Shown here one piece after another: positions 1,266 to 26,698 of a stretch of 41,632 bases of DNA. The position numbers and the translations under genes are program-made. A model generated the notes under the pieces. It saw only the letters and a list, made by a program, of their open reading frames with translations. It did no database searches and was not told the DNA's origin. Within the stretch, counting starts at the first letter, position 1. Every line of letters begins with the position of its first letter. The stretch is from a virus (taxonomy: Duplodnaviria > Heunggongvirae > Uroviricota > Caudoviricetes), in IMG/VR virus record IMGVR_UViG_2579778554_000004; one strand, written 5' to 3'.

Positions 1266-1763
1266 TCAGTGCCACGATTTTTGCTTCTTCAGTGAATCGT
1301 ATTGCTGTTCGCAGGATTCTCCTGCAATCCGATACTTTTCAGCCTCAGCTGCTGTTGCGTTGTAAACTCGGTTGCTTTCTTCAAGCATGTCGGCGAGCAC
1401 ACCGATGACCTTGCTGGCTGGCGTGCCAGTGGGGAAAGATCCGGTATAGTGTTCGGCGAGTCGCTTGGTTTTGTCAAGCTCGGCGCGCAGGCTGTCAGCA
1501 GCGGCATTAGCATGCTCAGCATCAACACGCGCCACATCGATACGGGACTGTGCTTCACGTTCAATTTGTGTTTTCTCCTGATCACGTTGTGACCTGGCCT
1601 TATCATCAGCCTGTTTCTGATCTTCCTGTGCCTGCGCATACCCGGCGTCGTACTGACGACTGCCGTGTGCATTCCAGGCTACAACTCCTGATATGACCAG
1701 AACAGCAAGCATCGCCATGATAACCAACTGTTTCCAGTATGCTTTTGCGAATGCCCAGATCAT
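1266..1763 (-). CDS. Rz-like i-spanin
   Basis: N-terminal TM helix then charged coiled-coil region; start overlaps endolysin stop (ATGA); last gene of lysis cassette. Confidence 0.7.
   Translation of the reverse strand: MIWAFAKAYWKQLVIMAMLAVLVISGVVAWNAHGSRQYDAGYAQAQEDQKQADDKARSQRDQEKTQIEREAQSRIDVARVDAEHANAAADSLRAELDKTKRLAEHYTGSFPTGTPASKVIGVLADMLEESNRVYNATAAEAEKYRIAGESCEQQYDSLKKQKSWH
1289..1537 (-). CDS. Rz1-like o-spanin lipoprotein embedded in Rz in another frame
   Basis: Embedded ORF with MWRVLMLSMLMPLLTAC signal and lipobox, Pro-rich mature part; start Met ambiguous (several in-frame ATGs). Confidence 0.45.
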   Translation of the reverse strand: MWRVLMLSMLMPLLTACAPSLTKPSDSPNTIPDLSPLARQPARSSVCSPTCLKKATEFTTQQQLRLKSIGLQENPANSNTIH

Positions 1764-2389
1764 ACCGCCAGCACCTTACTGGCAGTGATGTACCGCGCGC
1801 GCCGGTCGTCGATGCCGTTCCGGCCACCATTGATAATCAGAGTTACACGTGCAATATCGCCGGTATACTTCATGCATCCTTTGCTGGCAAAGAACCACGC
1901 CGCGCTACGAGCCGCGTATTCGTCCTGCGCCAGCAGTTCAGGACTCTCCAGCAGGTCAACCTTAAGACCGTTTCCACAGTCACGATAGTTATTCAAACCG
2001 GTAATCTGGATAAGTCCGCGACCACGGTAATTCCAGCCATCACCAGAGGCATTGTTACCCATGCGTTTGCTGTACACCAGATTTGCGATCGCGCGCTGGC
2101 GCTCAAGTGGCAATGGTGGCTCACCAGCACGGCGGCCCAGTGCGTTAGCCTGTCCCTGGGTGAGACGCCCAGCCCGAACGAAGTTAGCCAGTCCGGTGAC
2201 GCTGTAGTTGAAATTTTCCTGCAACCGGTTGAAGCCACCAGACTCATGCCCGACCTGAGCAATAAACATTGCCTGATCTTCGGGTTTGCTGATACCAAAC
2301 TCTTTCATCGCAGAAGTTATATGCGAGAACCAGCGAGCGGCCAGCGCCTCGCTAATACCAGCAGCTCGCTGGAATTGTTTAATCTCCAT
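1760..2389 (-). CDS. Endolysin, glycoside hydrolase family 19 (chitinase-like lysozyme)
   Basis: FIAQVGHESGGF...NYRGRGLIQITG motifs typical of GH19; start at internal ATG 2389 with GAGGT RBS (long ORF 1760-2620 is an upstream extension). Confidence 0.85.
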   Translation of the reverse strand: MEIKQFQRAAGISEALAARWFSHITSAMKEFGISKPEDQAMFIAQVGHESGGFNRLQENFNYSVTGLANFVRAGRLTQGQANALGRRAGEPPLPLERQRAIANLVYSKRMGNNASGDGWNYRGRGLIQITGLNNYRDCGNGLKVDLLESPELLAQDEYAARSAAWFFASKGCMKYTGDIARVTLIINGGRNGIDDRRARYITASKVLAV

Positions 2390-2687
2390 GTTTAGACCTC
2401 GATATTTTGAAAATATGAACAACGTTACCGCGTGTTTTAATAACCGCGGCAAGCATGACAGCGTTGATAATGACCTCAGATAAATCCACAGCCATTGGCG
2501 TGCGTAACCAGATTGCATAGACGACACGAACAGGAATACTTGCCGCAGCAACAATAAGGAAATAAGCAAGCCACCCTCCCCATCTTCGATGTTGAGAGCC
2601 GTTACGCCGGAATGTGACAACGCGAATTGCTATGCCAGTACAAATAACTGCATTGGTGATAAGCAAAAAAAACTCATGCGTTACCAT
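2379..2687 (-). CDS. Holin-like small membrane protein
   Basis: About 3 predicted TM segments; immediately upstream of and overlapping endolysin start. Confidence 0.6.
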   Translation of the reverse strand: MVTHEFFLLITNAVICTGIAIRVVTFRRNGSQHRRWGGWLAYFLIVAAASIPVRVVYAIWLRTPMAVDLSEVIINAVMLAAVIKTRGNVVHIFKISRSKHGD

Positions 2688-3078
2688 CGTCTTTTCTCCC
2701 CGGAATTAACTCGCGTGGATTATCGGAACGGTGATAGAGCCAGATGCCAATACGCACGGCGACAATTGCTGACACGAATGCGCCTGCAGAGAAAACAATC
2801 CCTTTTTCAAAAGAGTCCTGCGTGATGGTAGGGATCAGGCTGGCTATGCCGATAAGAATTGATGCTGCTGGTTTGTAAAAGAGAAGGCCGCAAAGAAAGC
2901 TGAGCATCGACAGGAGCACCCGGCGACGGATGGGGTACTCTACTGCAGAGGTAACAAAAATTACCGCCCCAGCCAAAGCCCCTAAAGCAACCTCCGGAGG
3001 GACACCTGCAATAACCGCAGCAAGAGAACTAACACTAAGCCACTGATTTGAAGTTTCATTGGTTAGTTGGAATGACAT
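2674..3078 (-). CDS. Holin or antiholin-like membrane protein
   Basis: Multiple hydrophobic segments; first gene of lysis cassette downstream of tailspike. Confidence 0.55.
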   Translation of the reverse strand: MSFQLTNETSNQWLSVSSLAAVIAGVPPEVALGALAGAVIFVTSAVEYPIRRRVLLSMLSFLCGLLFYKPAASILIGIASLIPTITQDSFEKGIVFSAGAFVSAIVAVRIGIWLYHRSDNPRELIPGRKDDGNA

Positions 3079-3150: not shown

Positions 3151-5613
3151 TCAATTCCCTGTTAATTGCAAAACTTGCTCTTCCAGCTTTTTAACCCTGC
3201 GTCTCATCATCGCAGATTCCAGAATCAGAGCCTCTTCATAACGGATACCGTAACATTCACCAGCCTCGACGGCTTCGCGTACCAGAACCTTTGTCTGTAT
3301 AAGTGGGTAAACTCCTGCAGAATGCTCTTCTTCCGTCACATCCCTGTATTCTGCCGGGGTCTCATTCCACTTGTCATAACAGATAAATGCCAGTCGTGAC
3401 ACATCTATGCCTTCATTCTGAAATACACTGATAACATGCTGCGCAACTGCACCAAAGTGCCATCTTGCTCCGTCTTTACCTTTCACTTCGATCCTGTCAA
3501 GGTACTGGTATGAAACCCATTCCACTCTTTCCCATGCGTCCAGTATTTTCTCATCAATAACCTCTGGAGCAGTCTTGAAACGCGCATCGGACAGCACCGT
3601 AAACGCTGACTGGGTAAATCCCCCCGACCATGCACGACCAGCCAACCCAAGAGAATAAGTATTCGTTGTCGATGGTGTCATGGCTGAATCAGAAAACTGT
3701 ATATATTCTGAATTTCCAGTAGATATTCGAATATTTCCATTTATTAGCGACATAGTGCCTTTAGTATTATCACTATTGAATAATTTCAATTGCGAACTTA
3801 TACCGCCTCCCACAGCCAGAGATACATCGCCTTCAGCAAGCATTCTGAATTTATCTGCAGAAACAAGCGTCTGGTTAGCAAGGTTAAAATATTTAACCCA
3901 CCATTCAAAACGCCCTGACATAGTCCCAACGTACTGACCAAGCGCAGGGACGTGAACAACATTGCTATTTGTAGTGCCGTCTATACTGGAAATACCAGTC
4001 ACCGCTGATGCAGAACTCAGAATATTATTTCTGTCACCCGGATGTTTAATTTCAACAAAGTTCCTGATACACCCTTCCTCGAAGGTAACCACGCCGGAAG
4101 AACTATACATGGGGAATATTGACGCATAATTACTGCGTGCAGCATCTAAGAAACGAATGGTTGTAGATGTCTGCAGATCTCCTGATTCATTTTTCCCATC
4201 ACACCCAGTCATTAGAATATTACTGGCAATATTATTATTTCCCTGAACGGTGACTCCGTGCGCCTGCTTTGCGTCCGATTCAGAGTAATCAACCAGCACA
4301 TTCGAAATCAGGTTACCAGTCCCCTTGCCAACAACTACTGCGGCGTATTTTGGGTTGTTAGCCATTACACTGCTAATGATATTATTCGTTGGGGCAGTTT
4401 CCGTCTCAGTTCCATTGTAAACAACGTGCTGACACTCTTCACCAATAACATTGCTGACAATGTTATATTTTGCTGCTGTTTTAAGTTCCACTGCACCAAA
4501 CTGAGGATAATTTCTGGCTATCACACCATCAATTAGCGTATTTTGCGATGAATCAAAAAGCACACAACCTGCTTTTTTATTATTTGCGAACCCTAAATAC
4601 TCTCCTCTTATATCTCTAACAATGTAACCTGACGGAATACCATTATTCGGATAAGCGATCAAGCTAAATCCTGTTCCTCGCGTATTTGTAAATCTGATAT
4701 TTTTAACCGATACATCATGGCCACCTGAAAATGACACCTGGTGTCCCTGCACACTATCATCTGATTTATTTCCCATAATTGTTAGCGTACTAAGCATGCC
4801 ACCATCGGGCATGTTAAAAACCAGATGATTACCATCTCTGTCATACTGTTTTATCGTTCCCCCACCTGTTCCGTACAAGCCACAACGTGAAAGAGAAACT
4901 AAAGATGTATTGAATACCCCTTCCGGAACAAAAACACTGCTAAACGAATGTAATGATTTTGTAAAAGCCTCCTTGTTATCATTTAAGATTCCATTTTGAG
5001 CTCCAAAATCCTTAATGCTGACACCATCACGCATCTTATCCTGGAGTGTTCTGTATACCGCTCCAGAACCATACTGAATAAACCAACCAAAACCACCAAC
5101 AACCCCGGCGATTGCAGCATCGACATAATTACGCATTGAGCGATTATTTACAGCGTCCTGCTCAAGTGATGGATCGGCAAGGTTAGATATTCTGTTTTGC
5201 TTTGCATCGTAATATTTTGCAAGCAAAGATGGTTTCATCAATGCACGTCTGAACCACCCAAAACATCGCTGGATCAGCATCGTCAGGTAGTCAAATGCAT
5301 CCTCATGAACTTCGGGGAAAAATTTTCCCTGATTGCGAAGATCAGTCTCCTGCACCACATCAAGCACACGCTCTATCGTGATTCGCCAGCCAGCAGCAAG
5401 CGGCGACGGAAGAACCACTGCACCGCCACTATAAGTTCCCGCCCCTGTTACCGTATAACCAGCATCCAGCACTAGTTTTGTAACGTTACCGTTAAGGTCA
5501 GACACCTGAACAACCAGGTCGGATTTTTTGAAAATACGGAAGGTATACGGAAATGATGTCGTAACGCCGTTACCTGTGTATTCGTTGTGGTCAACTTCGG
5601 TTGAGACCGTCAT
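3151..5613 (-). CDS. Tailspike protein with C-terminal intramolecular chaperone (peptidase S74-like) domain
   Basis: 820 aa; conserved podovirus head-binding N-terminus; Gly/Asn/Ser-rich beta-helix-like centre; C-terminal SDARFK...WHFGAVAQHV chaperone motif. Confidence 0.9.
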   Translation of the reverse strand: MTVSTEVDHNEYTGNGVTTSFPYTFRIFKKSDLVVQVSDLNGNVTKLVLDAGYTVTGAGTYSGGAVVLPSPLAAGWRITIERVLDVVQETDLRNQGKFFPEVHEDAFDYLTMLIQRCFGWFRRALMKPSLLAKYYDAKQNRISNLADPSLEQDAVNNRSMRNYVDAAIAGVVGGFGWFIQYGSGAVYRTLQDKMRDGVSIKDFGAQNGILNDNKEAFTKSLHSFSSVFVPEGVFNTSLVSLSRCGLYGTGGGTIKQYDRDGNHLVFNMPDGGMLSTLTIMGNKSDDSVQGHQVSFSGGHDVSVKNIRFTNTRGTGFSLIAYPNNGIPSGYIVRDIRGEYLGFANNKKAGCVLFDSSQNTLIDGVIARNYPQFGAVELKTAAKYNIVSNVIGEECQHVVYNGTETETAPTNNIISSVMANNPKYAAVVVGKGTGNLISNVLVDYSESDAKQAHGVTVQGNNNIASNILMTGCDGKNESGDLQTSTTIRFLDAARSNYASIFPMYSSSGVVTFEEGCIRNFVEIKHPGDRNNILSSASAVTGISSIDGTTNSNVVHVPALGQYVGTMSGRFEWWVKYFNLANQTLVSADKFRMLAEGDVSLAVGGGISSQLKLFNSDNTKGTMSLINGNIRISTGNSEYIQFSDSAMTPSTTNTYSLGLAGRAWSGGFTQSAFTVLSDARFKTAPEVIDEKILDAWERVEWVSYQYLDRIEVKGKDGARWHFGAVAQHVISVFQNEGIDVSRLAFICYDKWNETPAEYRDVTEEEHSAGVYPLIQTKVLVREAVEAGECYGIRYEEALILESAMMRRRVKKLEEQVLQLTGN

Positions 5614-6070: not shown

Positions 6071-6099
6071 TTGTAATTACCAAGTGGAGTGCTTATATT
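6071..6099 (+). promoter_or_regulatory. Sigma70-like promoter (TTGTAA-17-TATATT) abutting an operator
   Basis: -35 6071-6076, -10 6094-6099, operator palindrome 6099-6113 immediately downstream. Confidence 0.45.
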
Positions 6100-6384
6100 T
6101 ACCTTTGCGGTAAATTTACACCGCACTCCTCTTGTGCCATAGTAATCGGGCACTGGCAAAATCCAGTGCCGGGATTGGTCTCCCGGATTACTAAGTGGCG
6201 CATACCACGCCAGACGTGGTTTTTTTATGCGTATAGCACAGTCATGCCAGAATTATGGTGGGCTGAATGGGGGTCCGAAAGGACGCCGGTACCACTTAGG
6301 CCGGTAAGACCAACTCCGTTCAGTTCACCACCATCTGATTGGTCTCAGCGGTGGTGATGTAATTCGCTAAGTGGAGACGCCATC
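6099..6384 (+). repeat. Left copy of duplicated ~285-nt structured leader (operator, hairpins, intrinsic terminator, pre-RBS hairpin) upstream of the antA-like gene
   Basis: Reverse-complement match to 8848-9131 with compensatory substitutions in stems; begins with TTACCTTTGCGGTAA. Confidence 0.75.
6204..6226 (+). terminator. Intrinsic terminator or attenuator inside the leader
   Basis: ACCACG-ccaga-CGTGGT followed by TTTTTT; alternative pairing GGCG/CGCC upstream could compete. Confidence 0.55.
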
Positions 6385-7041
6385 ATGAACGCTCAACTCA
6401 TCCCCGTATTCAACGGCACTATCGCCAACGAAACCACTCTTCTCGTTAATGCTCGCGATTTACATACTTTTCTTGGGGTAGGTAAACGCTTTGCATCGTG
6501 GATTACAGAACGCATTGCTGAATATGGTTTCGTTGAAAATCAGGACTATATTTTGGTTTCCCCAAATCGGGAAATCAAAGGTCGAGGAGGCGATCGCCGT
6601 AGCAAAGACTATCACCTCACCCTCGATACGGCCAAAGAAACTGCGATGGTCGAGCGCAACGAAAAAGGCCGCCAGATACGCCGATACTTCATTGAATGCG
6701 AGAAACGTTTAAGACAACAAGAAACAAAGGTGGAGAAGGTCTTGTCAGGCTTCATGCCCGCCATTATGGAGGCGATCAAGCTGGAAGACAAAAAAGAATA
6801 CAGTGCCCCACTGAAGCCCGGCTACCGCAGTCTGATTCACTCGCCGTCGGGTGTTCTCGGCCTGACGGAGAACTCACTGCTGATGAATCTGCTGAACCAG
6901 TTACAGGAAGACGGGCACGACGTATCGGGCGCGGCGGCGGAGCTGACCACCATGTTCTGCTACATCGTCGGTGTGAGCAAATGCCTGCGTGATATCCAGA
7001 CCCACGCGGAGTACATCAACGACAAGGCAGGGTTCTTCTGA
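6385..7041 (+). CDS. Antirepressor-like protein, AntA/AntB-type N-terminal domain plus shared C-terminal domain
   Basis: ARDLHTFLGVGKRFASWITERIAEYGFVENQDY pattern; C-terminal ~85 aa near-identical to C-terminus of the 8152-8847 product. Confidence 0.8.
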   Translation: MNAQLIPVFNGTIANETTLLVNARDLHTFLGVGKRFASWITERIAEYGFVENQDYILVSPNREIKGRGGDRRSKDYHLTLDTAKETAMVERNEKGRQIRRYFIECEKRLRQQETKVEKVLSGFMPAIMEAIKLEDKKEYSAPLKPGYRSLIHSPSGVLGLTENSLLMNLLNQLQEDGHDVSGAAAELTTMFCYIVGVSKCLRDIQTHAEYINDKAGFF

Positions 7042-7060
7042 CGGCGGCGGCACAGGGACG
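6789..7060. repeat. Inner inverted repeat, left copy (3' end of antA-like gene)
   Basis: Near-identical by eye to reverse complement of 8132-8394. Confidence 0.8.
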
Positions 7061-7372: not shown

Positions 7373-8005
7373 TTAATGCAGTTTATCTTTGCTTATAACC
7401 AGTAGTCTGTGGGTATGCACATCTTTATCACTGCCCCAACAGAAATCAGCCCACTGGCTATAGAAATCATCCCATGATGTCATGAAGCTAAGAGGTCTAT
7501 CTTCTTCAGAGCCATCTGAAACGTATACATTATATCCTGGGGTGTTTATAGCCCAAGAAATCATTCTTTCCCAGAATCTTCTCCCATCGATTGTTTGTTG
7601 CTCATCAGATACAACGATCGCATATTGCTCTAGGAAGAACTGAAAAAAAATCTGAGGCAAACCATGAACAGCACGGTCATGAATAACATTAGGCGTACGC
7701 CATACCATGATCTGCGTACATGTTCTTTTGGCTTCGACGATATCTTCCCGAAAGATTAACTTAACCGCATACACCGTTTCTGGAGTATCGCTGGTAGTAA
7801 TCATTCTGTAATGATCGCCATTACAAGATTTTACAAGGCGATAACCATAAGGTGTTGTGAATCCCGGAAGAACGAAATCAACCACACCTTTCGCTAAGTA
7901 GCTTTCGGTGTGACTAGTGTTCTTCTCAGACATGTTCAGTTTTCTATCGAAATCTGCTTCTGGGATAATGTATGGCATCGCTTTTCTTGTTGTATTTGTT
8001 CTCAT
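7373..8005 (-). CDS. Hypothetical 210-aa cytoplasmic protein, orphan accessory gene (no family recognised)
   Basis: Strong SD GGGAGG before ATG; own operator-bearing upstream region and own terminator; AT-richer than flanks by eye. Confidence 0.75.
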   Translation of the reverse strand: MRTNTTRKAMPYIIPEADFDRKLNMSEKNTSHTESYLAKGVVDFVLPGFTTPYGYRLVKSCNGDHYRMITTSDTPETVYAVKLIFREDIVEAKRTCTQIMVWRTPNVIHDRAVHGLPQIFFQFFLEQYAIVVSDEQQTIDGRRFWERMISWAINTPGYNVYVSDGSEEDRPLSFMTSWDDFYSQWADFCWGSDKDVHTHRLLVISKDKLH

Positions 8006-8131: not shown

Positions 8132-8394
8132 CATCCCTGTGCCGCCGCCCGTCAGAAGAACCCTGCCTTGTCGTTGATGTACTCCGCGTGCGTCTGGATA
8201 TCACGCAGGCATTTGCTCACACCGACGATGTAGCAGAACATGGTGGTCAGTTCCGCCGCCGCGCCCGATACGTCGTGCCCGTCTTCCTGTAACTGGTTCA
8301 GCAGATTCATCAGCAGTGAGTTCTCCGTCAGGCCGAGAACACCCGACGGCGAATGAATCAGGCTGCGGTAGCCGGGCTTCAGCGGGGCACTGTA
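8132..8394. repeat. Inner inverted repeat, right copy (3' end of bro-like gene)
   Basis: Reverse complement matches 6789-7060 with only a few mismatches. Confidence 0.8.
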
Positions 8395-8847
8395 GGTTTT
8401 GTTCTCTATCTTCATCGCCTGCATTACTGCTGACGCCGTGGCGTTGGCTACCTGGTCGGCAACCATCTTTATGCGTTCTTCCTGCGGGAGCGAGTTTTTA
8501 ATGTAACTTCCGGTGCGGCGGATCTGAGGAAGAACCTCACCTGTAACCCATTTACGAAAGCGGTATGGGATAGTGCCTGGTGTCACCGCATCGCGGCAGC
8601 GGAGGATCAGTGTGTAGAGGCCTGACTCGGAGATAATGATCGATTCTTGCTCACCGCCAGGGGTGTCGGTTGAAGCGACGCCCTTCTCATCATCATCAAG
8701 TTTTCGAACAGCATCTCGATGGTTTGCTATGCCTATAGCCCGACAAACATCTGAAGCGATAAACCATGGCTCACCATTAATGACGATTACCCGTATATCG
8801 GCTTGAGATTCGAAAGAAAAAATGGACGTGCTTTTTGTAGCTGTCAT
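8152..8847 (-). CDS. Antirepressor-like protein, Bro-N/P22-Ant-type N-terminal domain plus shared C-terminal domain
   Basis: N-terminus IRVIVINGEPWFIASDVCRAIG typical of Bro-N/Ant; C-terminus identical to antA-like C-terminus. Confidence 0.8.
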   Translation of the reverse strand: MTATKSTSIFSFESQADIRVIVINGEPWFIASDVCRAIGIANHRDAVRKLDDDEKGVASTDTPGGEQESIIISESGLYTLILRCRDAVTPGTIPYRFRKWVTGEVLPQIRRTGSYIKNSLPQEERIKMVADQVANATASAVMQAMKIENKTYSAPLKPGYRSLIHSPSGVLGLTENSLLMNLLNQLQEDGHDVSGAAAELTTMFCYIVGVSKCLRDIQTHAEYINDKAGFF

Positions 8848-9131
8848 AGTGGTTACCTTTTAGTCTGGTTAATCACCACTACCGACGCCAATCGGTTGGT
8901 GGTGAACTGTGCAGGGTTGGCGTAACCGGCTAAAAGGACCCGGCGCACCTTTCGGTGCCCCCACACAGCCCACCATAATACGAATGTGGCCGTGCTATAC
9001 GCATAAAAAAACCGCTTGCGCGGTGAATGCGCCTTTTAGTAATCCGGGACGCCAATCCCGGCACTGGATTTTGCCAGTGCCCGATTACTATGGCACAAGA
9101 GGAGTGCGGTGTAAATTTACCGCAAAGGTAA
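8848..9131 (-). repeat. Right copy of duplicated structured leader, upstream of the bro-like gene
   Basis: Reverse complement of 6099-6384; operator TTACCGCAAAGGTAA at 9117-9131; terminator hairpin ACCGC-ttgc-GCGGT plus A-run 9005-9024. Confidence 0.75.
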
Positions 9132-9278
9132 TGATAGACACAGACAAACATTAAAATCAACCATATTTGGTTAATGTGTGTAAAAGAGCCAGCAGCGAGA
9201 AATTGTGCCGCGACGTAAAATAACGAGCATCTGCTGGCTTACAACCAGCGATGTTTCAAATTTGTCACTACTATCAAC

Positions 9279-9626
9279 GTGCCATTACACGGCGCAGAGC
9301 TTTATGTCGTCAATCACAACGGCGAACCGTACACCCCAATGAAACCTATCGTTGAAGGCATGGGTATGGTTTGGGCTGCTCAATTTGTTAAATTAAAACA
9401 GAGATTTGTCAAAGGTATTTCGGAAATCGAAATACCTTCTGCTGGCGGTAAACAGTTAATGATATGCCTTGCCTTTCGTAAGTTTGCGGCTTGGCTTTCA
9501 AGCATTCAGCCAAACAAAGTCTGCCCTGTAATCCGCGAAAGTATTGAAACATCAACCGTATCGATATCGACACGGTTGATTATGACGGTAACTTATTTCC
9601 GTGTGTACTATTTCTCCCGCCACTAA
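9279..9626 (+). CDS. Hypothetical protein, possibly a truncated antirepressor-like N-terminal domain
   Basis: 115-aa ORF; C-terminal 20 aa look like out-of-frame sequence; family assignment uncertain. Confidence 0.4.
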   Translation: MPLHGAELYVVNHNGEPYTPMKPIVEGMGMVWAAQFVKLKQRFVKGISEIEIPSAGGKQLMICLAFRKFAAWLSSIQPNKVCPVIRESIETSTVSISTRLIMTVTYFRVYYFSRH

Positions 9627-9923
9627 CTAATTATATTTGTCTTTAAAAATTTCATGGAATGATTGAGAGTAAGACTTGCCATACTTCAAATAACATTCTT
9701 CATCCAACTTTCTTAATGAACTTCGAACCTGTTCGTGGCATACAGCAAAAAAAACAAGTCCGCCGCCTATTAATACCCCTATTGATATTGGGTTCGCAAC
9801 ATCCCATAAAAAATCGGCTAACAGAGCAAATACCCCACCGCCGCCAATAAATGCCCCTATAGCTCGGTTCGTTTTAGCTTGCTCATAGCGTCTCTCTAAC
9901 TCACTAAACTCTTTAATATCCAT
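9627..9923 (-). CDS. Small two-TM membrane protein; candidate superinfection-exclusion or toxin-like factor
   Basis: GAGGTG RBS; two Gly-rich hydrophobic helices (GAFIGGGGVFALL, IGVLIGGGLVFFAV); AT-rich. Confidence 0.55.
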   Translation of the reverse strand: MDIKEFSELERRYEQAKTNRAIGAFIGGGGVFALLADFLWDVANPISIGVLIGGGLVFFAVCHEQVRSSLRKLDEECYLKYGKSYSQSFHEIFKDKYN

Positions 9924-10000
9924 ATAAGCACCTCTATAAAATTACTTCATCACCGGATCCACCTGGTTTATTAGTGGCGCAATCCAGAACAGATGTTTTA

Positions 10001-10849
10001 TTATTGTGAAGTTTTCATTGCACGATTTTCAGCTCTGAATTCAAGAACCGTTTCAATATTTCTTTCCTTCAGCATATCCATAACATTTTTATTCATTTGA
10101 CTATCACTGGTTAATAACTGATAAACGTTTCTTTTCTCTTTATCAGAATTTTCTTTAACAGCTGATTTGCATGACAAATGCTTATTGAAATTTTCTACAT
10201 CGCTAGTACATGAATTTACGGCTGCGGATGAAATATCAGACGCTGAAGAAACACCGTCATCTAAACGTTTTATAGCATTTTCTATACATGAGTTAAGGGA
10301 ATAAACGACAACTGAGCGATACCCTTCAGACGCACACCATTCTAAATTTCTTGAAGGATCGAGTGGTTTTACTTCGCTGGATTGAATTAACTTGTCAAAC
10401 ACTGACTTATATTCAATCTGTTTTTTATCTATAGCCCATACCTCAGTAGCTGATTTATAATGCCCAGTATGCTTATTAACATCAAACCCATGTTTTATAA
10501 GCAAATCTGCCCATGAAAGATTTATTGATTCATTGTTATGAGGCCATTTCCCTGTCAGAACCGCCCCCATAGACCCCATATATCCGCCATATGATGGTAT
10601 AGCACCATGGCTCAATAACTTCTCAGCAACCACAGGGCAATTAATTACATAGGAGACGTAAAGCCCATTCCATAAAGCCCCTCTATAGTAATCGCCGCGA
10701 TTAGGTTCTTTTAAGTCGATAGCCTTTGATAATTGTTCACACGTTTTGCATGCATCAAAGTTATCCTTATTGCATTGCAATGAACTGGCGGCTGTAGGAT
10801 TTACAGCGACTATTGAAAGCACAATGCCAAACAAATTTATTTTTTTCAT
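10001..10849 (-). CDS. Secreted protein with possible ankyrin-like repeats, AT-rich moron coupled to the late operon
   Basis: Signal peptide MKKINLFGIVLSIVAVNPTAASS; many Cys; start 1 nt after stop of the 1129-aa gene. Confidence 0.65.
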   Translation of the reverse strand: MKKINLFGIVLSIVAVNPTAASSLQCNKDNFDACKTCEQLSKAIDLKEPNRGDYYRGALWNGLYVSYVINCPVVAEKLLSHGAIPSYGGYMGSMGAVLTGKWPHNNESINLSWADLLIKHGFDVNKHTGHYKSATEVWAIDKKQIEYKSVFDKLIQSSEVKPLDPSRNLEWCASEGYRSVVVYSLNSCIENAIKRLDDGVSSASDISSAAVNSCTSDVENFNKHLSCKSAVKENSDKEKRNVYQLLTSDSQMNKNVMDMLKERNIETVLEFRAENRAMKTSQ

Positions 10850-10850
10850 C

Positions 10851-13800
10851 CTATTTCATCTGCTCTTCAACTTTATTCAGTAATGGTGATATCGCCCACA
10901 GGTTCTGAAAAGGTAGCATTTTACGGACCGCGTGGGTTTGCTGGCTGTCAAATTCTCCGTTAAGTACACCATTCGCAACCGTCGCGGCATCACCGCCAAG
11001 ATCAAAGGTAGGACCAAGTAAAGCACCAATAGCATTACGACTCTGAAACCTTGATACCGGAGGCGCACCAAACATCGCGCCAAGACCAAACCTACCGCCG
11101 CTTATGTTCTCAACGGTATTCAGCGGCTCAGAGAGCCAGCCAAGCATTCCGCCCCGGTCGATCCCCTCTTTCACAAGGTTATTCCAGCTGTAGTCGATAT
11201 CGCGACCGCTTAACTTCTGTTTCATCATATAGACCATTGAGCCAAGCGCAATCGTGCCAAGCGCACCAAGATAGAATGCAGCATCGCCCTGCTGGATACC
11301 AGATACCAGCACCCTGTTATGCTGTGCGAAGATAAACGTTTTGAACTGCGTGATCATCTTCCAGCCTTCTTTACTAAAAAACAGCGGTGTATCACCTACG
11401 CCAGGCGTTACAATCACTGAGTCTACATCTTTCAGCACTGCAGACTGGAAAATCTCTCTAGCGAAACGGTCATCCCACAGATGACTATGCCCGGTTAACA
11501 GCCCGTCCATATCCTCTCCGTGCTTCCCGAATTGCTCCCCGATTCGGCGCAGAACATCTTCATTGATGCCGACCTGTGCCATCTTCCGCATTTCACTTTT
11601 GGAGAGCGTGCCACCAGCAGAAACTTGGCGAGCCGCGTCAAGTATCCTCGACTGCACTATCATCCCAGACCATGATTTAAGTGCGCTGTTCCACTGATTC
11701 ATCAGCGTCCAGTTACCGAATTTCTGCGTCATCCAGTTCAGACCTCGCTCAGCGGCGCTTCTCCGGCTATAGGGGTCAGTAAGATCCGCTATAGCCTTTG
11801 TACGCGTAGACAGGACATAATCAAGCCCAACTGCCATTTCTCGCAAATCCCTGGTTGCAATTTTCACTGAGTCCATATTTTTAAGCATGCTTACCATTGG
11901 TCCGAGAGATTTTCTCAGGCCATGCTGCATCATCGGTCGCATCAGATCAGTTGCAGCGGAGACGGTCATTCCACCAAGCAAACGGAGGAAGTTAATATTC
12001 CTAGCAACTCGCCCGGCACGAACAAAGAAACTGCGTGGATCTTGAGGTGCGCCGTAAGTACCAAGCAGTCGGTCACGCATAGCCGTAATATCCCTAATAT
12101 CAGCCTCCCGTTGCTTCTCAAGAGCTGCACGTCGTTTAGGTGTTTTAGCCTCTTTTATTAGCCGGGTATATTCCTCACTAACCTGACGGATTTGCTCCCC
12201 CATATCTTTACGGCCAAACTGCGCAGTCAGCTCAATTTCTGGTGCCACCTGCCGGAGATAACTTTCCATGATGTAGTTAACATCTGATTCAAGAAAATCT
12301 TCTATACGCTCATCAGGAATAAGCAGCGTTCGGCTTTTAGTGAAACCAGCCCGACCAACGAGTCTCTCTGGGATAATATCGGCTGGTACAAGCCCGGAAG
12401 GTGCGCCTATTATTTTATTCACGATCTCGTCAGCAGCGTCCTCTGCTTCCTCTCGGGATAGAGGCTCCATCTGCTTCAGTGCTCGCTCGCGGCTTGCATT
12501 CAGCCTTGTGGTTGAATTTGCCCGTTTTTGCAGTCGGCGAAGCTCAGAACGATATTTCCGTGGATTATCCAGCAACTCCATATGGCGCTGATAGACAGGA
12601 AGCTCACTCTTTGCCTGCGCTATATCATCAAGGCGTGTTTTAAGGTCAGAGCTTTCTTTCATCATTCTTGCCTGAAGTTTTTCTGATGAAGTCTCGGCCA
12701 ACTCTTTTTCTATTCTTGTAAGACGCGCCTGTGTGTCAGTCTCCTGAGATATAAGCTTATTTCGTTTATCCAGTTCTTCCATGAGTAGAATTTTTTTACC
12801 AGACCATTTCTCCGCTTCAGCGATTTCACTAGCGAGAGCATCAGCGCGCGGTGCTGATTCCTCTGCAGTTTTTAGCAATGAATTTATCTTTTCAATTCGC
12901 TGACCTGCTTTGTCAGCACCTTTGGCACTAATCCCTTGTATCCAGTTGGCAATTCGCCCTCTGAATTCAGTGCGGTCGGAAAGTATCTTATCGAACTTAT
13001 AAATGCGGGGAAGATAACTCTTCGCCGTCACGACATCGATATCCTCAGGAAGGATCCCCAATTCCTGCATACGGGCTTTTGTGGTCTCAAAAATGGGGCG
13101 GATTCTGGCGGCTGCTTGTGAAACCTCAGGAATATCACTCTGATCACCACGGCGCATAGCCATGCCAACAGCTTCATTGAAATCAATAAAGTTCATCCTC
13201 TTCACGCCGCGGGCGCTGACAGATTTGCTGTACTGCTGGTAAGCATCACGAGTAGCTTCCATCTGCTTATAAAGCATGGCGTCGTATTGCTTAATCTTAG
13301 TCTCGACTGCCGTAAACGTAGCCAACCCCTCATCATTTTTGGCGAAGAAATAGTTATTTTCGGCAAGCTGCTGGTTAATCTGACGGGAAACAAGAGATGG
13401 TGATTGCGCCAAGCGGCCAGCAGGAGTGACACTCAACGTTTTGTTAGCAAGTCCAAGTCCAGCAAGCTGTTCCTGATCGAGTGTGGTATTGAAAACCTGA
13501 GCTGCACCAATGCTTTGAGGAGAATCCATACCTCGCAAATGATTACCTACTGAGTTAACCACTGCCTCGCGCGCGCTAGGTCCAGCAAGTAGCTGTGCAC
13601 CAGCACCAAGGATCCCACCAACGAGAGCATCAACAACAACGTTCGATACGCTCTCCATCGGTGAGCGAGCTTCCTGAGTGGCCTGCAATGCGGCCTCTGA
13701 AGCAACACTGCCAGCAGCATTGGCTAAAGCAAAACGTCCGGCTGTTTCTGCAATACGACCGCCACGAACGACAGCGCCGAACGGAATAAACATAGAAATC

Positions 13801-14240
13801 GCATTGAATGGATCTGCTAATCTCATTGCTACAGAAGAGACTGTACCAGCAAATCCCAAGCCTGAATTGTATTCCATGTCAGCTCTCTGCTGATCGATTC
13901 GATGTTTAATTGCCATTGTTTCTTCATGCGAACCGGAGTTGATAAACGAATCTGCAAAATCTTCATAGCCTTTAATATCTGCTGCATCGTTATCAAATGG
14001 GTTATATCCTTCAACCCTGTCAAACTGACTGAAAGGAGCACTGGCAATAAAGCTACCCAGCGTGTTATCTATACGAAATGCTGCTTGTCTAGACCTTTGA
14101 ACGCGTTGATCACTGGTAAATGGGTTCACAGCAGAAAGCAAAGAAGGTGTTTCCATATAGAAATTACTGTCATCAGGTGCTGCTATTTGCTGAATACCCT
14201 CGCCAAGCAACTCTTTAGGATCCTGTTCATATATCGGCAT
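10851..14240 (-). CDS. Internal virion/ejection protein (T7 gp16-like position), 1129 aa
   Basis: Size and position after the 915-aa protein in T7-like order; coiled-coil-rich centre. Confidence 0.8.
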   Translation of the reverse strand: MPIYEQDPKELLGEGIQQIAAPDDSNFYMETPSLLSAVNPFTSDQRVQRSRQAAFRIDNTLGSFIASAPFSQFDRVEGYNPFDNDAADIKGYEDFADSFINSGSHEETMAIKHRIDQQRADMEYNSGLGFAGTVSSVAMRLADPFNAISMFIPFGAVVRGGRIAETAGRFALANAAGSVASEAALQATQEARSPMESVSNVVVDALVGGILGAGAQLLAGPSAREAVVNSVGNHLRGMDSPQSIGAAQVFNTTLDQEQLAGLGLANKTLSVTPAGRLAQSPSLVSRQINQQLAENNYFFAKNDEGLATFTAVETKIKQYDAMLYKQMEATRDAYQQYSKSVSARGVKRMNFIDFNEAVGMAMRRGDQSDIPEVSQAAARIRPIFETTKARMQELGILPEDIDVVTAKSYLPRIYKFDKILSDRTEFRGRIANWIQGISAKGADKAGQRIEKINSLLKTAEESAPRADALASEIAEAEKWSGKKILLMEELDKRNKLISQETDTQARLTRIEKELAETSSEKLQARMMKESSDLKTRLDDIAQAKSELPVYQRHMELLDNPRKYRSELRRLQKRANSTTRLNASRERALKQMEPLSREEAEDAADEIVNKIIGAPSGLVPADIIPERLVGRAGFTKSRTLLIPDERIEDFLESDVNYIMESYLRQVAPEIELTAQFGRKDMGEQIRQVSEEYTRLIKEAKTPKRRAALEKQREADIRDITAMRDRLLGTYGAPQDPRSFFVRAGRVARNINFLRLLGGMTVSAATDLMRPMMQHGLRKSLGPMVSMLKNMDSVKIATRDLREMAVGLDYVLSTRTKAIADLTDPYSRRSAAERGLNWMTQKFGNWTLMNQWNSALKSWSGMIVQSRILDAARQVSAGGTLSKSEMRKMAQVGINEDVLRRIGEQFGKHGEDMDGLLTGHSHLWDDRFAREIFQSAVLKDVDSVIVTPGVGDTPLFFSKEGWKMITQFKTFIFAQHNRVLVSGIQQGDAAFYLGALGTIALGSMVYMMKQKLSGRDIDYSWNNLVKEGIDRGGMLGWLSEPLNTVENISGGRFGLGAMFGAPPVSRFQSRNAIGALLGPTFDLGGDAATVANGVLNGEFDSQQTHAVRKMLPFQNLWAISPLLNKVEEQMK

Positions 14241-16987
14241 TATTTGCCCCCTGCGTATATATTGCTCGGAAGGTAATTGGCTGAACCATAACCGAATGGT
14301 TTTGTCAGATCTGGAGGAGTATATCCATCTTTATTGCTGAACTGCGGCAGCGGATTGCCTTCTCTCCGCACTCTAGCCTCATCAACACGCTGTTGCTGGA
14401 ACTGAATGGTTTGCCTGTACATTGGAGATGTCAGCTGATCCGGCTTGAAACGAACAGGGAGACCATTTTCTCCAATATAATTTCTCGGTTCTATCGCTCC
14501 GTTTGCGTCAGGCTGTAAAACCATAACAGCATAACTCCTATCCCTTGCCGTAAGGCCATCAGAAACAAGTATTAAGTCCGTATCACTGCGAGGACCGCCA
14601 AAGGATTTTGATTTAAGCTCGCGTTTTTCCTGCTCCCACTGCCCCTGTATCCAGTTACCAGCACCATTATTTACTCCGTACAATGCCTCAGGTGCATACT
14701 TCATAACCTCTGCTTTGCCATTAACCGTAGAAACTCCCCAAGTGGTTCTGATCATGGCATTGGTCATTTTCTCAGCCTGTTCTGCATCGCCACCTGTCTG
14801 TACAAAGTTAGCATCGTAAATTGTCTGGTAATCTCGCTGATAGGCCGCATTTGATTTTCCTGGATCGGTAATATCCGGAGACCACGAACCAAAGGAAGTC
14901 AGACTGCTGGCGTTATTTTGTGCAGCAGTTGCCCTCGCCGCGACATATTTTTTGTCTCGCATGGCAGTGGAAAGCATCTGTTTCATTCGGTCATCCTGTT
15001 GGAACACCTGGCTGTAAGCCATATCAACAGCCTTATCCTCCGGCACGCCAGCGCGGGAATAATCGTAAACCTTGCCGTAAAATGCCATCGTACTTTTATC
15101 AAGTGTTGCCGCTGCCGCCGGATTATTATCGAATAACTGACCGTAGAATTTTGCCATCGGGACAACCAGCGCAGGATCTCTTGATGTCGCTCCACTGTTA
15201 AGCATTGTTTTAATCTGAGTTGGTATCATGCCGCTTTTAGTTGTGACGGTGACCAGTGTATTGATGCTCTGCGGATCAGATATGGAAAACGAAGGCGCGA
15301 TATCCTGCGCGAAATAACGGTCTACCGCTGCCTGATTGTTTTTGTCGTTCGGGTCCAGCGGGAAGTTATTTTGCATTGAAGACACGAACCTGTTTCTTCC
15401 CTGCTGAATCTCCCACTCCCTATCCATCTCTTTAAATTTGGCCTGCATTTTCTCCCAGCGTTGCTGGTTAGCTGCAAATCCAGGAGCGTTTGGATCCTGT
15501 GGACGTAAACGTTCAAGAATGTCTTGCCGTCCTTCTGGAGTGAGGTCTTTAGCGGCACCAATGACACCTCCATATTGTATCTGCGCCTGCATATCCTTCC
15601 ACTTCATAGCGCCAATGCGCGGACCATTGGCCCGGATAAAATCGTCCTCAGAAGGTAACTTCTCAGGTTTCAATCCTTCATCAAGGGCTGAATATGCATC
15701 TTTAACTACGGTGCTAAGCTGGTCCGCATACTGCTGGCGGTACTGATTTCTCAGCTCATTAGCCTGCCTCAATGCCTGTATTTGCATTTGAGGGCTCATA
15801 GCATCAAATGCCGCATTGCCCGTATAACGCTTAGGTGAATCAAGGTTAGTTAGACCAAGGGCTGCCGAGATACCAGTTTCAAGCTGTTCGGTGCTATAAG
15901 GCATACTGCCATTTTCGTGTTTAATAATCCCAGCACATAAAGCAGCTAGTGTCTTTGGGTTAGAGATATCAAGCTGATCATTCTCCCCAACACCAAGCTC
16001 ACCACACAATGCCCTAATATAAGCATCAGTATTATTACCATCACTAGCCGGAGCATAGCGATTAACAATCTCGCTAACGGTGTCATAGCCTTGACGCTGG
16101 TAAGACAACATATTTTTACCCAACGCGCGGATTCCATGCTCAGGGGTAGCAAACGTTGCAAAACGTCCATCGCTACCGATCTGACCTTCCCACGGGTTAG
16201 ATTTGCTCGCTTCAATATTACCGGGGTTATTATTACGTAAACCACGAGCATCCAATGAATTACCATGTGATATTGCACGACTCACACCATCAAGATCCCC
16301 TGGCTCTCCATTAACCTGAAGAAACTCGTTGTATTTTTGAGCGATATTTCCTATCCATGCTTGCTGCCCCATTTGTTCCTTGAGCTGAGTTTTCTGCTGA
16401 ACACGCCACTCATCAGGAAGCCCATGCGCATCAGCGTATTGATCAATAGATTCAAATCGCTGCTTGGCTAAATCGACAAATGCTTGGTTATCGCTATATA
16501 GCCCCGCAGACTGAGTGACAGCCAATGCATTTCCTGACAAATACGTTTGATCTTGGAATTGCTGAAACTGCCCAACTTCATATCGACGTGCCTGATTGTA
16601 ATAAGACTGCATAGACTGCTGGAGTTGAAAGGATAATTTATTCCTTTCCTCACTTTCAGGAATTGAGCCTAATAATGCCTGAGCCCTTTCCTGCATATTT
16701 TTCATAACAGCGTCACTCTGACCAAGAGCGTTTTTACCCTGTTTAGAAATCAGCCCATTTTCAGGGTTGTTAATCTGGTCATCTGCAAATTGGTTAAATT
16801 GCAGTAACGCCTCCTGGGCCATAGCAACATTCGCTTTCTGCCTGGCTTCACCATATGCCACCGCATACTGATCTGCGACATTCGCCAGCACCTGACCTGC
16901 TTGAGGAACATCGAAGGTCTGAAAACCACCGGTTTGCACACCACGACTTTGCACCTGGCGTCCGGATGTAGTAGGAACAACAGGCAT
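14240..16987 (-). CDS. Internal virion/ejection protein (T7 gp15-like position), 915 aa
   Basis: Size and position; start overlaps upstream gene stop. Confidence 0.8.
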   Translation of the reverse strand: MPVVPTTSGRQVQSRGVQTGGFQTFDVPQAGQVLANVADQYAVAYGEARQKANVAMAQEALLQFNQFADDQINNPENGLISKQGKNALGQSDAVMKNMQERAQALLGSIPESEERNKLSFQLQQSMQSYYNQARRYEVGQFQQFQDQTYLSGNALAVTQSAGLYSDNQAFVDLAKQRFESIDQYADAHGLPDEWRVQQKTQLKEQMGQQAWIGNIAQKYNEFLQVNGEPGDLDGVSRAISHGNSLDARGLRNNNPGNIEASKSNPWEGQIGSDGRFATFATPEHGIRALGKNMLSYQRQGYDTVSEIVNRYAPASDGNNTDAYIRALCGELGVGENDQLDISNPKTLAALCAGIIKHENGSMPYSTEQLETGISAALGLTNLDSPKRYTGNAAFDAMSPQMQIQALRQANELRNQYRQQYADQLSTVVKDAYSALDEGLKPEKLPSEDDFIRANGPRIGAMKWKDMQAQIQYGGVIGAAKDLTPEGRQDILERLRPQDPNAPGFAANQQRWEKMQAKFKEMDREWEIQQGRNRFVSSMQNNFPLDPNDKNNQAAVDRYFAQDIAPSFSISDPQSINTLVTVTTKSGMIPTQIKTMLNSGATSRDPALVVPMAKFYGQLFDNNPAAAATLDKSTMAFYGKVYDYSRAGVPEDKAVDMAYSQVFQQDDRMKQMLSTAMRDKKYVAARATAAQNNASSLTSFGSWSPDITDPGKSNAAYQRDYQTIYDANFVQTGGDAEQAEKMTNAMIRTTWGVSTVNGKAEVMKYAPEALYGVNNGAGNWIQGQWEQEKRELKSKSFGGPRSDTDLILVSDGLTARDRSYAVMVLQPDANGAIEPRNYIGENGLPVRFKPDQLTSPMYRQTIQFQQQRVDEARVRREGNPLPQFSNKDGYTPPDLTKPFGYGSANYLPSNIYAGGK

Positions 16988-17553
16988 CAGTAACCTCCTA
17001 TTTTGAATCGGGAGTCAGAATTCATAAAACCTGAGTTAGATAACATTGGCGTGTTTCCTTGCTTACTAATCGGATTGATACTTCCGCTACCCAACTTATA
17101 TGCACCGTATGCTTTTAGTGGTGCCGTTAACAAAGTGCTGGTCATCGATGATTTAGCAGCCGACTGAGCAGCAGCCCCCTGTGCCTGAGCATTCATTCCC
17201 TGAACCTGATACCCATATGCCTCACGCTGAGCATTATTCACTGTCGTTAACGCATCAAGAGTGCCGAACTGAGCATTATCCGCAAAAACGTCAAGAGCTG
17301 TTCCGCTACTTAATTCCGCACCGGTAGCCCCCATAGTGGCCGCCGCAGTGCCTGAGCGTTGACGCATTTCACGACGACGCTGATCCGCTTCAATATTCCC
17401 ACGATTGATTGAATCCTGTGCCTGAGCTTCAGCAATTTCAGCATTCCGATCAGCTATGGCTGACTGGTATTTTGCCTGCTTGCTCTGGCTGTACATTGAC
17501 GCGGCTGTGGATGCCACTGTGACGGCAACCAAAGCGATGGCTGGGTTACACAT
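16987..17553 (-). CDS. Internal virion protein (T7 gp14-like position), 188 aa
   Basis: Ala/Gln-rich small protein with hydrophobic N-terminus; translationally coupled. Confidence 0.65.
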   Translation of the reverse strand: MCNPAIALVAVTVASTAASMYSQSKQAKYQSAIADRNAEIAEAQAQDSINRGNIEADQRRREMRQRSGTAAATMGATGAELSSGTALDVFADNAQFGTLDALTTVNNAQREAYGYQVQGMNAQAQGAAAQSAAKSSMTSTLLTAPLKAYGAYKLGSGSINPISKQGNTPMLSNSGFMNSDSRFKIGGY

Positions 17554-26621: not shown

Positions 26622-26698
26622 GTGGCATTAGCTCAGTTGGACAGAGCAACCGCCTTCTAAGCGGTTGGTCGCAGGTTCGAATCCTGCATGCCACGCCA
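26622..26698 (+). tRNA. tRNA-Arg, anticodon UCU (reads AGA), CCA encoded
   Basis: Cloverleaf by hand: acceptor GTGGCAT/ATGCCAC, D-arm GCTC..GAGC, anticodon stem ACCGC/GCGGT with loop CTTCTAA, T-arm GCAGG-TTCGAAT-CCTGC, discriminator G plus CCA. Confidence 0.9.

Follow-up and report, generated by a model that had tools for sequence, protein, structure and literature searches.

The window analysed here is a stretch of 41,632 nucleotides (nt), IMG/VR record IMGVR_UViG_2579778554_000004, which is 100% identical to the prophage adjoining yfgI in Escherichia coli sequence type 131 (ST131) and in many other extraintestinal pathogenic E. coli (ExPEC) genomes. Two AT-rich genes, for proteins of 282 and 98 amino acids (aa), lie on its minus strand directly after the genes for the ejection proteins. 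The 282-aa product is a predicted exported protein of two domains, and it has about an even chance of being a periplasmic inhibitor, comparable to Spackle of phage T4, of the wall hydrolase associated with ejection, acting in superinfection exclusion. The odds stay near even because the evidence for this function consists of genomic association and fold. The features carrying the argument are the following.

10001..10849, minus strand: gene of the 282-aa exported two-domain protein, an open reading frame (ORF) annotated as a coding sequence (CDS) in RefSeq E. coli genomes; phrog_6118 (E = 1e-194)
10781..10849, minus strand: signal peptide, residues 1 to ~23, from sequence and hydropathy (MKK, 13-residue hydrophobic core, AAS/S cleavage motif)
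10370..10780, minus strand: N-domain, residues ~24-160, of divergent ankyrin-repeat-like fold and able to form disulfides; predicted to bind the PHA02564 muralytic domain
10004..10357, minus strand: C-domain, residues ~165-282, a helical bundle with the motif LDDGxSxASD and four invariant Cys (AlphaFold2, AF2, model)
10851..14240, minus strand: gp16-like internal virion (ejection) protein of 1129 aa, 'A-type' allele; phrog_342 (E = 2e-232)
14240..16987, minus strand: 915-aa ejection protein at the gp15 position; phrog_1044, also phrog_873 and phrog_7182 'tail injection transglycosylase'
15788..16255, minus strand: PHA02564-type muralytic domain inside the 915-aa protein, motif RNNNPGNI ... KHENGS; predicted target of the 282-aa protein

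The 282-aa protein and its gene

The ATG of the 282-aa gene is separated by a single base (10850) from the TAG of the 1129-aa gene (10851-10853), and the coordinates thus confirm the spacing of 1 nt given in an earlier note on this DNA. The guanine-plus-cytosine (GC) content of the gene is 36.5%, with 29.7% at third codon positions (GC3), and that of the 98-aa gene is 38.4% (GC3 33.3%), compared to 46.8-51.6% in the flanking gp14-, gp15- and gp16-like, tail, capsid and portal genes, so both are AT-richer than their flanks, as the same note had stated. Low GC is also found in the homologues from Klebsiella-, Serratia-, Morganella- and Providencia-type loci, with 32-40% compared to 41-54% in the gp16-like gene beside them, a dip of 9-17 points.

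Among 5426 complete E. coli genomes the gene is present in 106, in every case inside this ejection module. About 120 E. coli genomes have the module, and ~13 of them, TUM12368 being one, have near-identical modules from which the 282-aa gene is missing, a distribution that does not correspond to a virion structural protein present in all members. No homologue was found in related Klebsiella phages, and the one isolated phage of this type, EC.W1-9, carries a 283-aa homologue. Relatives with the same architecture are few and limited to Enterobacterales prophages of E. coli, Klebsiella, Serratia, Morganella and Providencia.

Regarding the protein itself, its eight Cys are invariant in 15 homologues, down to 38% identity, and the hydrophobic stretch of these homologues always ends two to three residues ahead of the first invariant Cys. 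The Sec-type signal peptide, together with these cysteines, predicts periplasmic export, in agreement with the signal-peptide, Cys-rich protein of the earlier note, as confirmed by hydropathy and by the conservation of the eight Cys.

A profile search of 1.8 billion representative proteins splits the 282-aa protein into two domains, each of which also occurs as a standalone secreted protein: positions ~5-155 recur in proteins of ~160-170 aa, and also fused to MORN or CpoB-like TPR modules, and positions ~160-275 recur in proteins of 115-155 aa. The fusions observed inside larger exported proteins comprise MORN-repeat proteins with an unassigned C-terminal domain (464-485 aa, marine metagenomes; locus L059, 258-1649, and locus L063, 3530-4984) and a 480-aa protein, P0060, with a CpoB/YbgF-like TPR domain.

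The N-domain is modelled with a predicted local distance difference test score (pLDDT) of 95.8 as a stack of helix-turn-helix/beta-hairpin repeats, and its fold matches are only ankyrin-type repeat proteins. On this model the domain is ankyrin-like in fold, which bears out the 'possible ankyrin-like repeats' of the earlier note, with a sequence below the Pfam Ank thresholds: no Ank model, and no Pfam family at E<=0.1, matches the 282-aa protein. Sub-threshold DARPin matches (E 0.5-2) and weak profile matches to the true ANK proteins P0063 and P0067 (E 2e-11 and 3e-9, respectively) were also obtained. The full-length model of the 282-aa protein is mediocre in its N-half, and the fold search with it gave generic helical matches only. 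The C-domain has an AF2 block-mean pLDDT of ~82-97, with the tip of the C-terminus dropping to ~58. Neither the fold search nor the context search gave an informative match for it; in the latter, the viral scan returned the same phage family only and three short metagenome contigs were uninformative. Searches of Pfam, NCBIfam and PADLOC gave no match for the 282-aa protein, the 98-aa protein or the standalone relatives, no virulence or defence family matching the 282-aa protein in them, and a third database search with a mixed alignment gave no further annotated relatives.

The muralytic domain of the 915-aa ejection protein

The motif RNNNPGNI ... KHENGS spans residues ~245-400 of the 915-aa ejection protein, which is encoded two genes upstream of the 282-aa gene. 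Among Protein Data Bank (PDB) entries, the domain matches in sequence Gp29 (9vvp_L, E = 2e-36) and the Enc34 endolysin (7q47, E = 1.6e-16), and it retains the catalytic Glu of HENG (column E410 of alignment A6, invariant); the match to the catalytic domain of Enc34 ORF39 and this Glu place the domain in the PHA02564 family. In the work on Enc34, the PHA02564 domain proved to be muralytic, with a fold of the lysozyme type and the HENG Glu as its catalytic residue (PMC8943055).

A 158-aa PHA02564-type endolysin was also observed in the lysis cassette of a Morganella/Providencia-type phage (locus L035, 10556-12166), which has a 270-aa homologue of the 282-aa protein as well. A single phage of this type thus uses the PHA02564 family as both ejection enzyme and endolysin.

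Linkage of the N-domain to PHA02564 genes

In every locus with a homologue of the 282-aa protein and enough upstream sequence, the profile hidden Markov model of the PHA02564 domain matches the protein at the gp15 position, and these loci belong to E. coli, Klebsiella, Serratia, Morganella and Providencia lineages. Three modules with the other, B-type gp16-like allele (see below) lack a 282-aa homologue; SLT is annotated in two of them, and the third, from E. coli UTME-14, is untyped and disrupted by insertion sequences (IS).

The association extends to the standalone relatives. When each distinct context was counted once, 14 standalone contexts were informative, and a PHA02564 gene is near the N-domain gene in six of them, five times beside it and once in the same prophage tail module. 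In L011, from Bacteriovoracia, a 219-aa gene with the motif RNQNPGNI...GFAVFP shares 4 nt at its end with the N-domain gene; in L066 and L108/L109 the PHA02564 gene is downstream of the N-domain gene with a start/stop overlap; in L104-106 both genes are convergent with an overlap of 8 nt, and in L103 they are 0.5 kb apart. The sixth context, L010, is a proteobacterial prophage where the N-domain gene closes the tail module; a tape-measure-like protein bearing the same motif is encoded 3.2 kb upstream of it.

The identity matrices of the N-domain and of the enzyme domain are correlated (Mantel r = 0.735, with none of 5000 permutations as high), as they are in the subset of seven loci formed by the six standalone contexts and this prophage (r = 0.78, 5 of 5000), which shows that the pair was inherited as a unit through deep divergence and three gene arrangements. 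Of the two paired products, only the one with the N-domain has a signal peptide, a pattern typical of an effector that acts in the periplasm and its immunity protein. The paired enzymes carry a DUF3892 domain or a His/Arg-rich tail, and their partner is a secreted ankyrin-like protein.

The pairs of environmental bacteria (L011, 6264-7399; L103, 457-2175; L104, 4364-5498; L066, 336-1350; L108, 3754-4802) look like effector/immunity gene pairs as judged from their sequences. No secretion-system genes were found in the short flanks of the standalone pairs, and in the literature we found no paper tying PHA02564 enzymes to an inhibitor or pairing them with this ankyrin-like family.

The 98-aa gene and the recombinational junction

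The gp16-like proteins of these modules occur as A-type and B-type alleles that are 30-42% identical, the value for the 1129-aa protein being 42% over the C-terminal half. The features between the 282-aa gene and the antirepressor region are the following.

9942..9992, minus strand: relic of a B-type gp16-like allele, 51 nt, its last 16 codons and stop (LFWIAPLINQVDPVMK and the stop), between the 282-aa and 98-aa genes
9929..9934, minus strand: ribosome-binding site (RBS) GAGGTG of the 98-aa gene, 5 nt ahead of its ATG
9627..9923, minus strand: gene of the 98-aa inner-membrane hairpin protein with two transmembrane (TM) segments, ORF and RefSeq CDS; phrog_21905 (E = 1e-67)

The GAGGTG that the earlier note had assigned to the 98-aa gene as its own RBS is found at 9934-9929, and the same RBS spacer follows the stop of the B-type gp16 gene in UTME-14. 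Its description of a two-TM protein also stands, as the product has two hydrophobic, Gly-rich segments at residues ~21-39 and 44-63; their charged flanking segments predict an N-in/C-in hairpin topology, with both conserved ends in the cytoplasm. The family is tiny, with no match in 50,697 phage records, only phrog_21905 (function unassigned) as an assignment and no Pfam or PADLOC match.

The 98-aa gene occurs in 38 E. coli genomes, four of which, the UTME strains, lack the 282-aa gene and have the 98-aa gene directly after the 3' end of a different gp16-like gene. In E. coli UTME-14, as in Citrobacter, a B-type gp16-like gene precedes the homologue by 10-22 nt. In Citrobacter braakii, a homologue with 59% identity lies 10 nt after the gene of a 963-aa gp16-like protein, which has 77% identity with the B-type allele from E. 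coli AR_0085 and whose module has SLT, not PHA02564. By these placements the 98-aa gene is an independent accessory cassette, normally found with a B-type (SLT-carrying) ejection module. In the UTME strains, two IS3-family elements (locus L006, 3965-5178 and 7459-8672) break the B-type gp16-like gene and the antirepressor region, so that prophage is defective, with the 98-aa gene intact.

The relic includes a 45-bp match of 100% to the 3' end of the 1004-aa gene of E. coli AR_0085 and is continuous with the end of the UTME-14 pseudogene. Moreover, A-type prophages and phage EC.W1-9 cease to match at 9994, and the similarity to UTME-14 begins at 9992. This junction at 9992-9994 indicates that the prophage is a recombinant, in which an A-type structural module including the 282-aa gene is followed by a B-type-derived accessory region. 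The latter brought in the 98-aa gene and the truncated antirepressor, and the 282-aa and 98-aa genes are thus neighbours through recombination and not a coevolved unit. The earlier note had treated both genes as a pair, which is contradicted by their distribution (106 against 38 genomes, four of the 38 without the 282-aa gene) and by the 51-nt B-type relic between them.

Identity of the prophage and gene order

Other features of the window that bear on the identity of the phage and on its lysis are the following.

16987..17553, minus strand: T7 gp14-family core protein, 188 aa (PF24072, E = 2e-7; RefSeq annotation)
9279..9626, plus strand: truncated antirepressor (P22_AR_N) pseudogene (PF10547, E = 1e-25; RefSeq 'missing C-terminus')
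9011..9024, minus strand: first downstream terminator-like hairpin, from a consensus scan only (3 sites where 1.6 were expected)
1760..2389, minus strand: endolysin of the phage, glycoside hydrolase family 19 (GH19), by the RefSeq annotation of the identical prophage

The RefSeq/Pfam annotation includes capsid accessory genes of the Bbp16/Bbp19 type, a gp10 'capsid staple' and the T7 gp14-family core protein. Because of these capsid genes, the gp14-family core and the PHROG internal virion proteins, the phage is read as a BPP-1/epsilon15-like temperate podophage with a T7-style ejectosome, resident as an E. coli prophage, and a P22-like identity is ruled out by the capsid genes and the core protein. 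The 'P22 sieA position' of the earlier note thus holds as a relative place, since the ejection genes are followed by the 282-aa and 98-aa genes, the antirepressor (immI-like) region and the tailspike, and fails as to the kind of phage. The antirepressor region contains Ant, BRO-N and the truncated P22_AR_N pseudogene, which is convergent with the 98-aa gene and abuts it, an arrangement also found in UTME-14. The hairpin at 9011..9024 is a possible end of the late transcript. The lysis cassette is complete and located elsewhere, with holins, the GH19 endolysin and an Rz-like gene at 1266-3078, and the endolysin belongs to an enzyme class different from that of the PHA02564 domain associated with ejection.

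The 1129-aa protein has the RefSeq name 'DUF919 family', which was set aside as non-informative, as it derives from a 46-residue match (residues 530-575) to a model of 62 positions at E = 5e-5; the match to this baculovirus family looks like a coiled-coil artefact. A tRNA-Arg is annotated in the identical ST131 record at ~26622-26698 (plus strand), between the portal and terminase regions.

The variable slot downstream of the gp16-like gene

The place occupied by the two genes differs among related prophages. In EC.W1-9 and IHE3034 it has nothing on the same strand, only a convergent gene for a 53-aa TM protein; TUM12368 has a convergent gene for a 146-aa secreted Cys protein, and AR_0085 has a gene for a 187-aa N-anchored protein. 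In the Serratia and Morganella loci, unrelated multi-TM proteins of ~100 aa follow the homologue of the 282-aa protein. The slot is thus a hot spot of accessory genes directed to the envelope, which fits an exclusion or conversion locus. A small membrane protein as an obligatory partner of the 282-aa protein was rejected, as most 283-aa variants have none downstream and the three membrane proteins of ~100 aa are mutually unrelated.

Further downstream, the antirepressor region contains an inverted duplication of two cassettes (6089-6358 with 8872-9141, and 6786-7044 with 8149-8407), formed by Ant (218 aa, plus strand) and BRO-N (231 aa, minus strand). Their upstream regions are 76-87% complementary and their last 259 nt are 96% complementary, giving identical C-terminal ends of ~80 aa. 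The inverted arms flank the segment 7045-8148, which could be invertible or recombinogenic and includes a 210-aa gene (7373-8005, minus strand; 40.8% GC; phrog_1349, function unassigned) and the gene of the 53-aa 'transmembrane anchored protein' WP_000708858.1 (7113-7274, minus strand), which adjoins the ejection operon in most related E. coli prophages; both count as further accessory genes of this variable region. The tailspike (3151-5613, minus strand) has a beta-helix, by a weak, sub-threshold Pfam match, and a C-terminal Peptidase_S74 intramolecular-chaperone domain. At its position, otherwise similar prophages encode an endosialidase (IHE3034), a GH28-related protein (TUM12368) or an 'eliminase' (EC.W1-9), so the receptor-binding module is swapped among relatives.

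Proposed mode of action and alternative explanations

In the proposed mechanism, the 282-aa protein would be exported by Sec and fold in the periplasm with disulfide bonds. The PHA02564 domain of the 915-aa protein presumably opens the peptidoglycan, and the ankyrin-like N-domain would bind and inhibit this Enc34-ORF39-type domain in the ejection protein of an incoming phage, blocking the opening of the wall. Against phages that share this ejection enzyme, a cell making the 282-aa protein would then be resistant, both to the delivery of their DNA and to lysis from without. Since the endolysin of this prophage is a GH19 enzyme, an inhibitor of PHA02564 would leave its own lysis unaffected. The 98-aa protein, an inner-membrane protein with two predicted TM segments whose gene lies directly after ejection genes, as in the SieA type, may act in a SieA- or Imm-like manner at the step of DNA entry through the inner membrane, against B-type phages. 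Of the functions that the earlier note had offered, superinfection exclusion is retained as the best functional guess, through the linkage of the N-domain to the PHA02564 domain, without a P22-like phage or a pair by descent, and lysogenic conversion gained no specific support.

A broader and more doubtful proposal is that the N-domain represents a new, widespread family of periplasmic, disulfide-stabilised, ankyrin-type immunity proteins against PHA02564 hydrolases, both interbacterial effectors and ejection enzymes, which temperate podophages captured, joined to a second domain and use for the exclusion of relatives. In this proposal the prophage would stack two specificities, the 282-aa protein against its own A-type modules and the 98-aa protein against B-type modules.

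Several observations weigh against these readings. The 282-aa gene is translationally coupled to the late structural operon, and the promoter scan gave no promoter-like site upstream of it, with fewer sites than in shuffled controls; because of both results, its expression in lysogens is an assumption only. Eight of the 14 standalone contexts have no PHA02564 neighbour: six are orphans among unrelated genes, and the others are L062, near a possible GH24-like lysozyme (sub-threshold Pfam match), and the MORN-fusion family (L059-64). The linkage and the Mantel correlation can be explained by joint inheritance without inhibition, and the C-terminal domain, ~40% of the 282-aa protein, is not accounted for. 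In the L035-type phages, the PHA02564 endolysin implies that an inhibitor must there be selective, in the way that Spackle is, or outcompeted. As for the 98-aa protein, no similarity to the known SieA type or to another annotated exclusion family was found, and the case for exclusion consists of its position and topology.

The same coupling, by 1 nt to the last late structural gene and with no detectable promoter of its own, could instead mean that the 282-aa protein is expressed only from the late operon and binds the PHA02564 enzyme for the late benefit of the phage itself, averting premature wall damage by unpackaged ejection protein, protecting against lysis from without, or acting on lysis timing or lysis inhibition. 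T4 spackle mutants also alter lysis inhibition and lysis from without (PMC7677548), and the L035-type phages have both a homologue and a PHA02564 endolysin. We nevertheless consider such a late role rather unlikely, as the ejection protein lacks a signal peptide, is packaged inside the cytoplasm and comes into the periplasm only once the holin has fired. In addition, close relatives do without the gene, and the endolysin of this prophage is not of the PHA02564 type. Unlikely as well is the explanation of both genes as ordinary morons, with envelope roles unrelated to phage entry, such as host fitness, stress or serum resistance, or lysogenic conversion. The ankyrin-like domain would then bind a bacterial or host protein, and the PHA02564 linkage of its distant relatives would not be transferable to the fused protein. 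It accords with the AT-rich, horizontally mobile cassettes, the frequency of the prophage in ExPEC/ST131 isolates, the eight standalone relatives without an enzyme neighbour and the unrelated secreted or anchored proteins found in the same slot of other prophages. Its probability is lowered by the occurrence of the 282-aa homologue only with PHA02564-type ejection modules, over five genera, by the fact that Sec export by itself leaves the protein in the periplasm, and by the lack of a virulence or defence family among its matches.

A part of the 282-aa protein in the virion or in its assembly, as a fourth ejection protein or a tail-associated one, is highly improbable. Its translational coupling to the gp16-like gene and its presence in the isolated phage EC.W1-9 would agree with it, but the cleavable signal peptide and eight invariant Cys imply periplasmic disulfides in a protein of tailed phages, whose virions assemble in the cytoplasm, the gene is missing in the ~13 near-identical E. 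coli modules and in the related Klebsiella phages, and its GC is 10-17 points under that of the structural genes. For the 98-aa protein, the alternative is a small membrane toxin, a holin-like or antiholin protein or a membrane-stress modulator that is in the slot by chance, which we regard as a minor but real possibility. A small Gly-rich hairpin with two TM segments is the architecture of many holins and type I toxins, truncated and frameshifted variants are found in databases, and the Serratia and Morganella loci have their unrelated membrane proteins of ~100 aa in the same place. On the other side, the prophage possesses its complete lysis cassette elsewhere (1266-3078), and the place right after B-type gp16-like genes is kept in two genera at 59% identity.

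If the 282-aa protein is indeed an inhibitor of the ejection enzyme, it would represent a second mechanistic class of exclusion by inhibition of the wall-degrading enzyme of an incoming virion, after T4 Spackle, and among temperate podophages of the E. coli lineages that dominate clinically, ST131 and other ExPEC, it would be the first case. PHA02564/Enc34-type lysins, currently being engineered as antibacterials, would thereby have their first named inhibitor family, and an effector/immunity pairing would come to light in environmental bacteria. Regarding the host range of phage therapy, lysogens with the cassette could resist therapeutic phages having the same ejection enzyme. In addition, the chimeric junction would exemplify how exclusion cassettes are shuffled via the conserved 3' ends of ejection-protein genes.

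Comparison with known systems

By mechanism, the closest known system is T4 Spackle (gp61.3), which inhibits the gp5 tail (virion) lysozyme and spares the endolysin, and which acts alongside Imm, a small membrane protein with two TM segments (PMC7677548), to which the 98-aa two-TM protein may be compared. The likeness proposed for the 282-aa protein is that of a small exported phage protein directed against a virion-borne wall hydrolase, the own endolysin being spared. Spackle is a helical bundle of ~97 aa, whereas the candidate binding domain of the 282-aa protein is ankyrin-like, and no sequence or fold homology to the Spackle family was found for the latter. Their targets also differ, being of the T4-lysozyme type for Spackle and, as predicted, of the PHA02564 type here, and so do their genes, an early gene in T4 and here one that closes the late operon of a temperate podophage.

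By fold and logic, the closest is Bd3460 of Bdellovibrio, a periplasmic ankyrin protein that binds and inhibits the peptidoglycan endopeptidases encoded beside it (PMC4686830). Both are periplasmic (predicted here) and ankyrin-type in fold, with genes next to hydrolase genes, and one standalone pair of this study (L011) comes from Bacteriovoracia. In contrast, Bd3460 targets DD-endopeptidases and not a lysozyme-fold enzyme, and the 282-aa family has conserved disulfide cysteines and falls below the Pfam Ank thresholds; the two were compared by fold and logic, not by sequence.

By position, the closest is SieA of phage P22, an inner-membrane protein encoded directly downstream of the ejection genes, which blocks DNA delivery via the ejection proteins in a type-specific manner and targets the C-terminal regions of P22 gp16 and gp20 (PMC10461980). 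The genomic slot is alike, as are, for the 98-aa protein, the membrane location and the fixed place after B-type gp16-like genes. On the other hand, the phage lineage is another, there is no sequence similarity to any annotated exclusion family, and SieA is embedded in the membrane, whereas the 282-aa protein is predicted to be soluble and periplasmic.

The standalone pairs resemble the Tsi/Tai immunity proteins of type VI secretion systems and those of type IV secretion systems, in having an enzyme without a signal peptide, an adjacent and often overlapping gene with a signal peptide, and 'orphan' copies elsewhere. They differ from them in the absence of secretion-system genes from the short flanks and in the pair itself, since PHA02564 (sometimes with DUF3892) and an ankyrin-like partner were not found together in the literature. 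Ivy, MliC/PliC, PliG and PliI are periplasmic or outer-membrane-anchored proteins that bind lysozymes. They have other folds, their targets are animal c-, g- and i-type lysozymes and their genes are chromosomal housekeeping or defence genes instead of phage cassettes, and the Pfam/NCBIfam searches gave no sequence match of the 282-aa family to any of them.

The 282-aa protein therefore belongs to none of Spackle, Bd3460 and SieA, being set apart from Bd3460 on grounds other than a sequence comparison. Inhibition of a wall hydrolase in the periplasm, as a means of exclusion or immunity, is already known from other systems, and the candidate family (phrog_6118, function unassigned) would be a further form of it, directed against PHA02564 enzymes.

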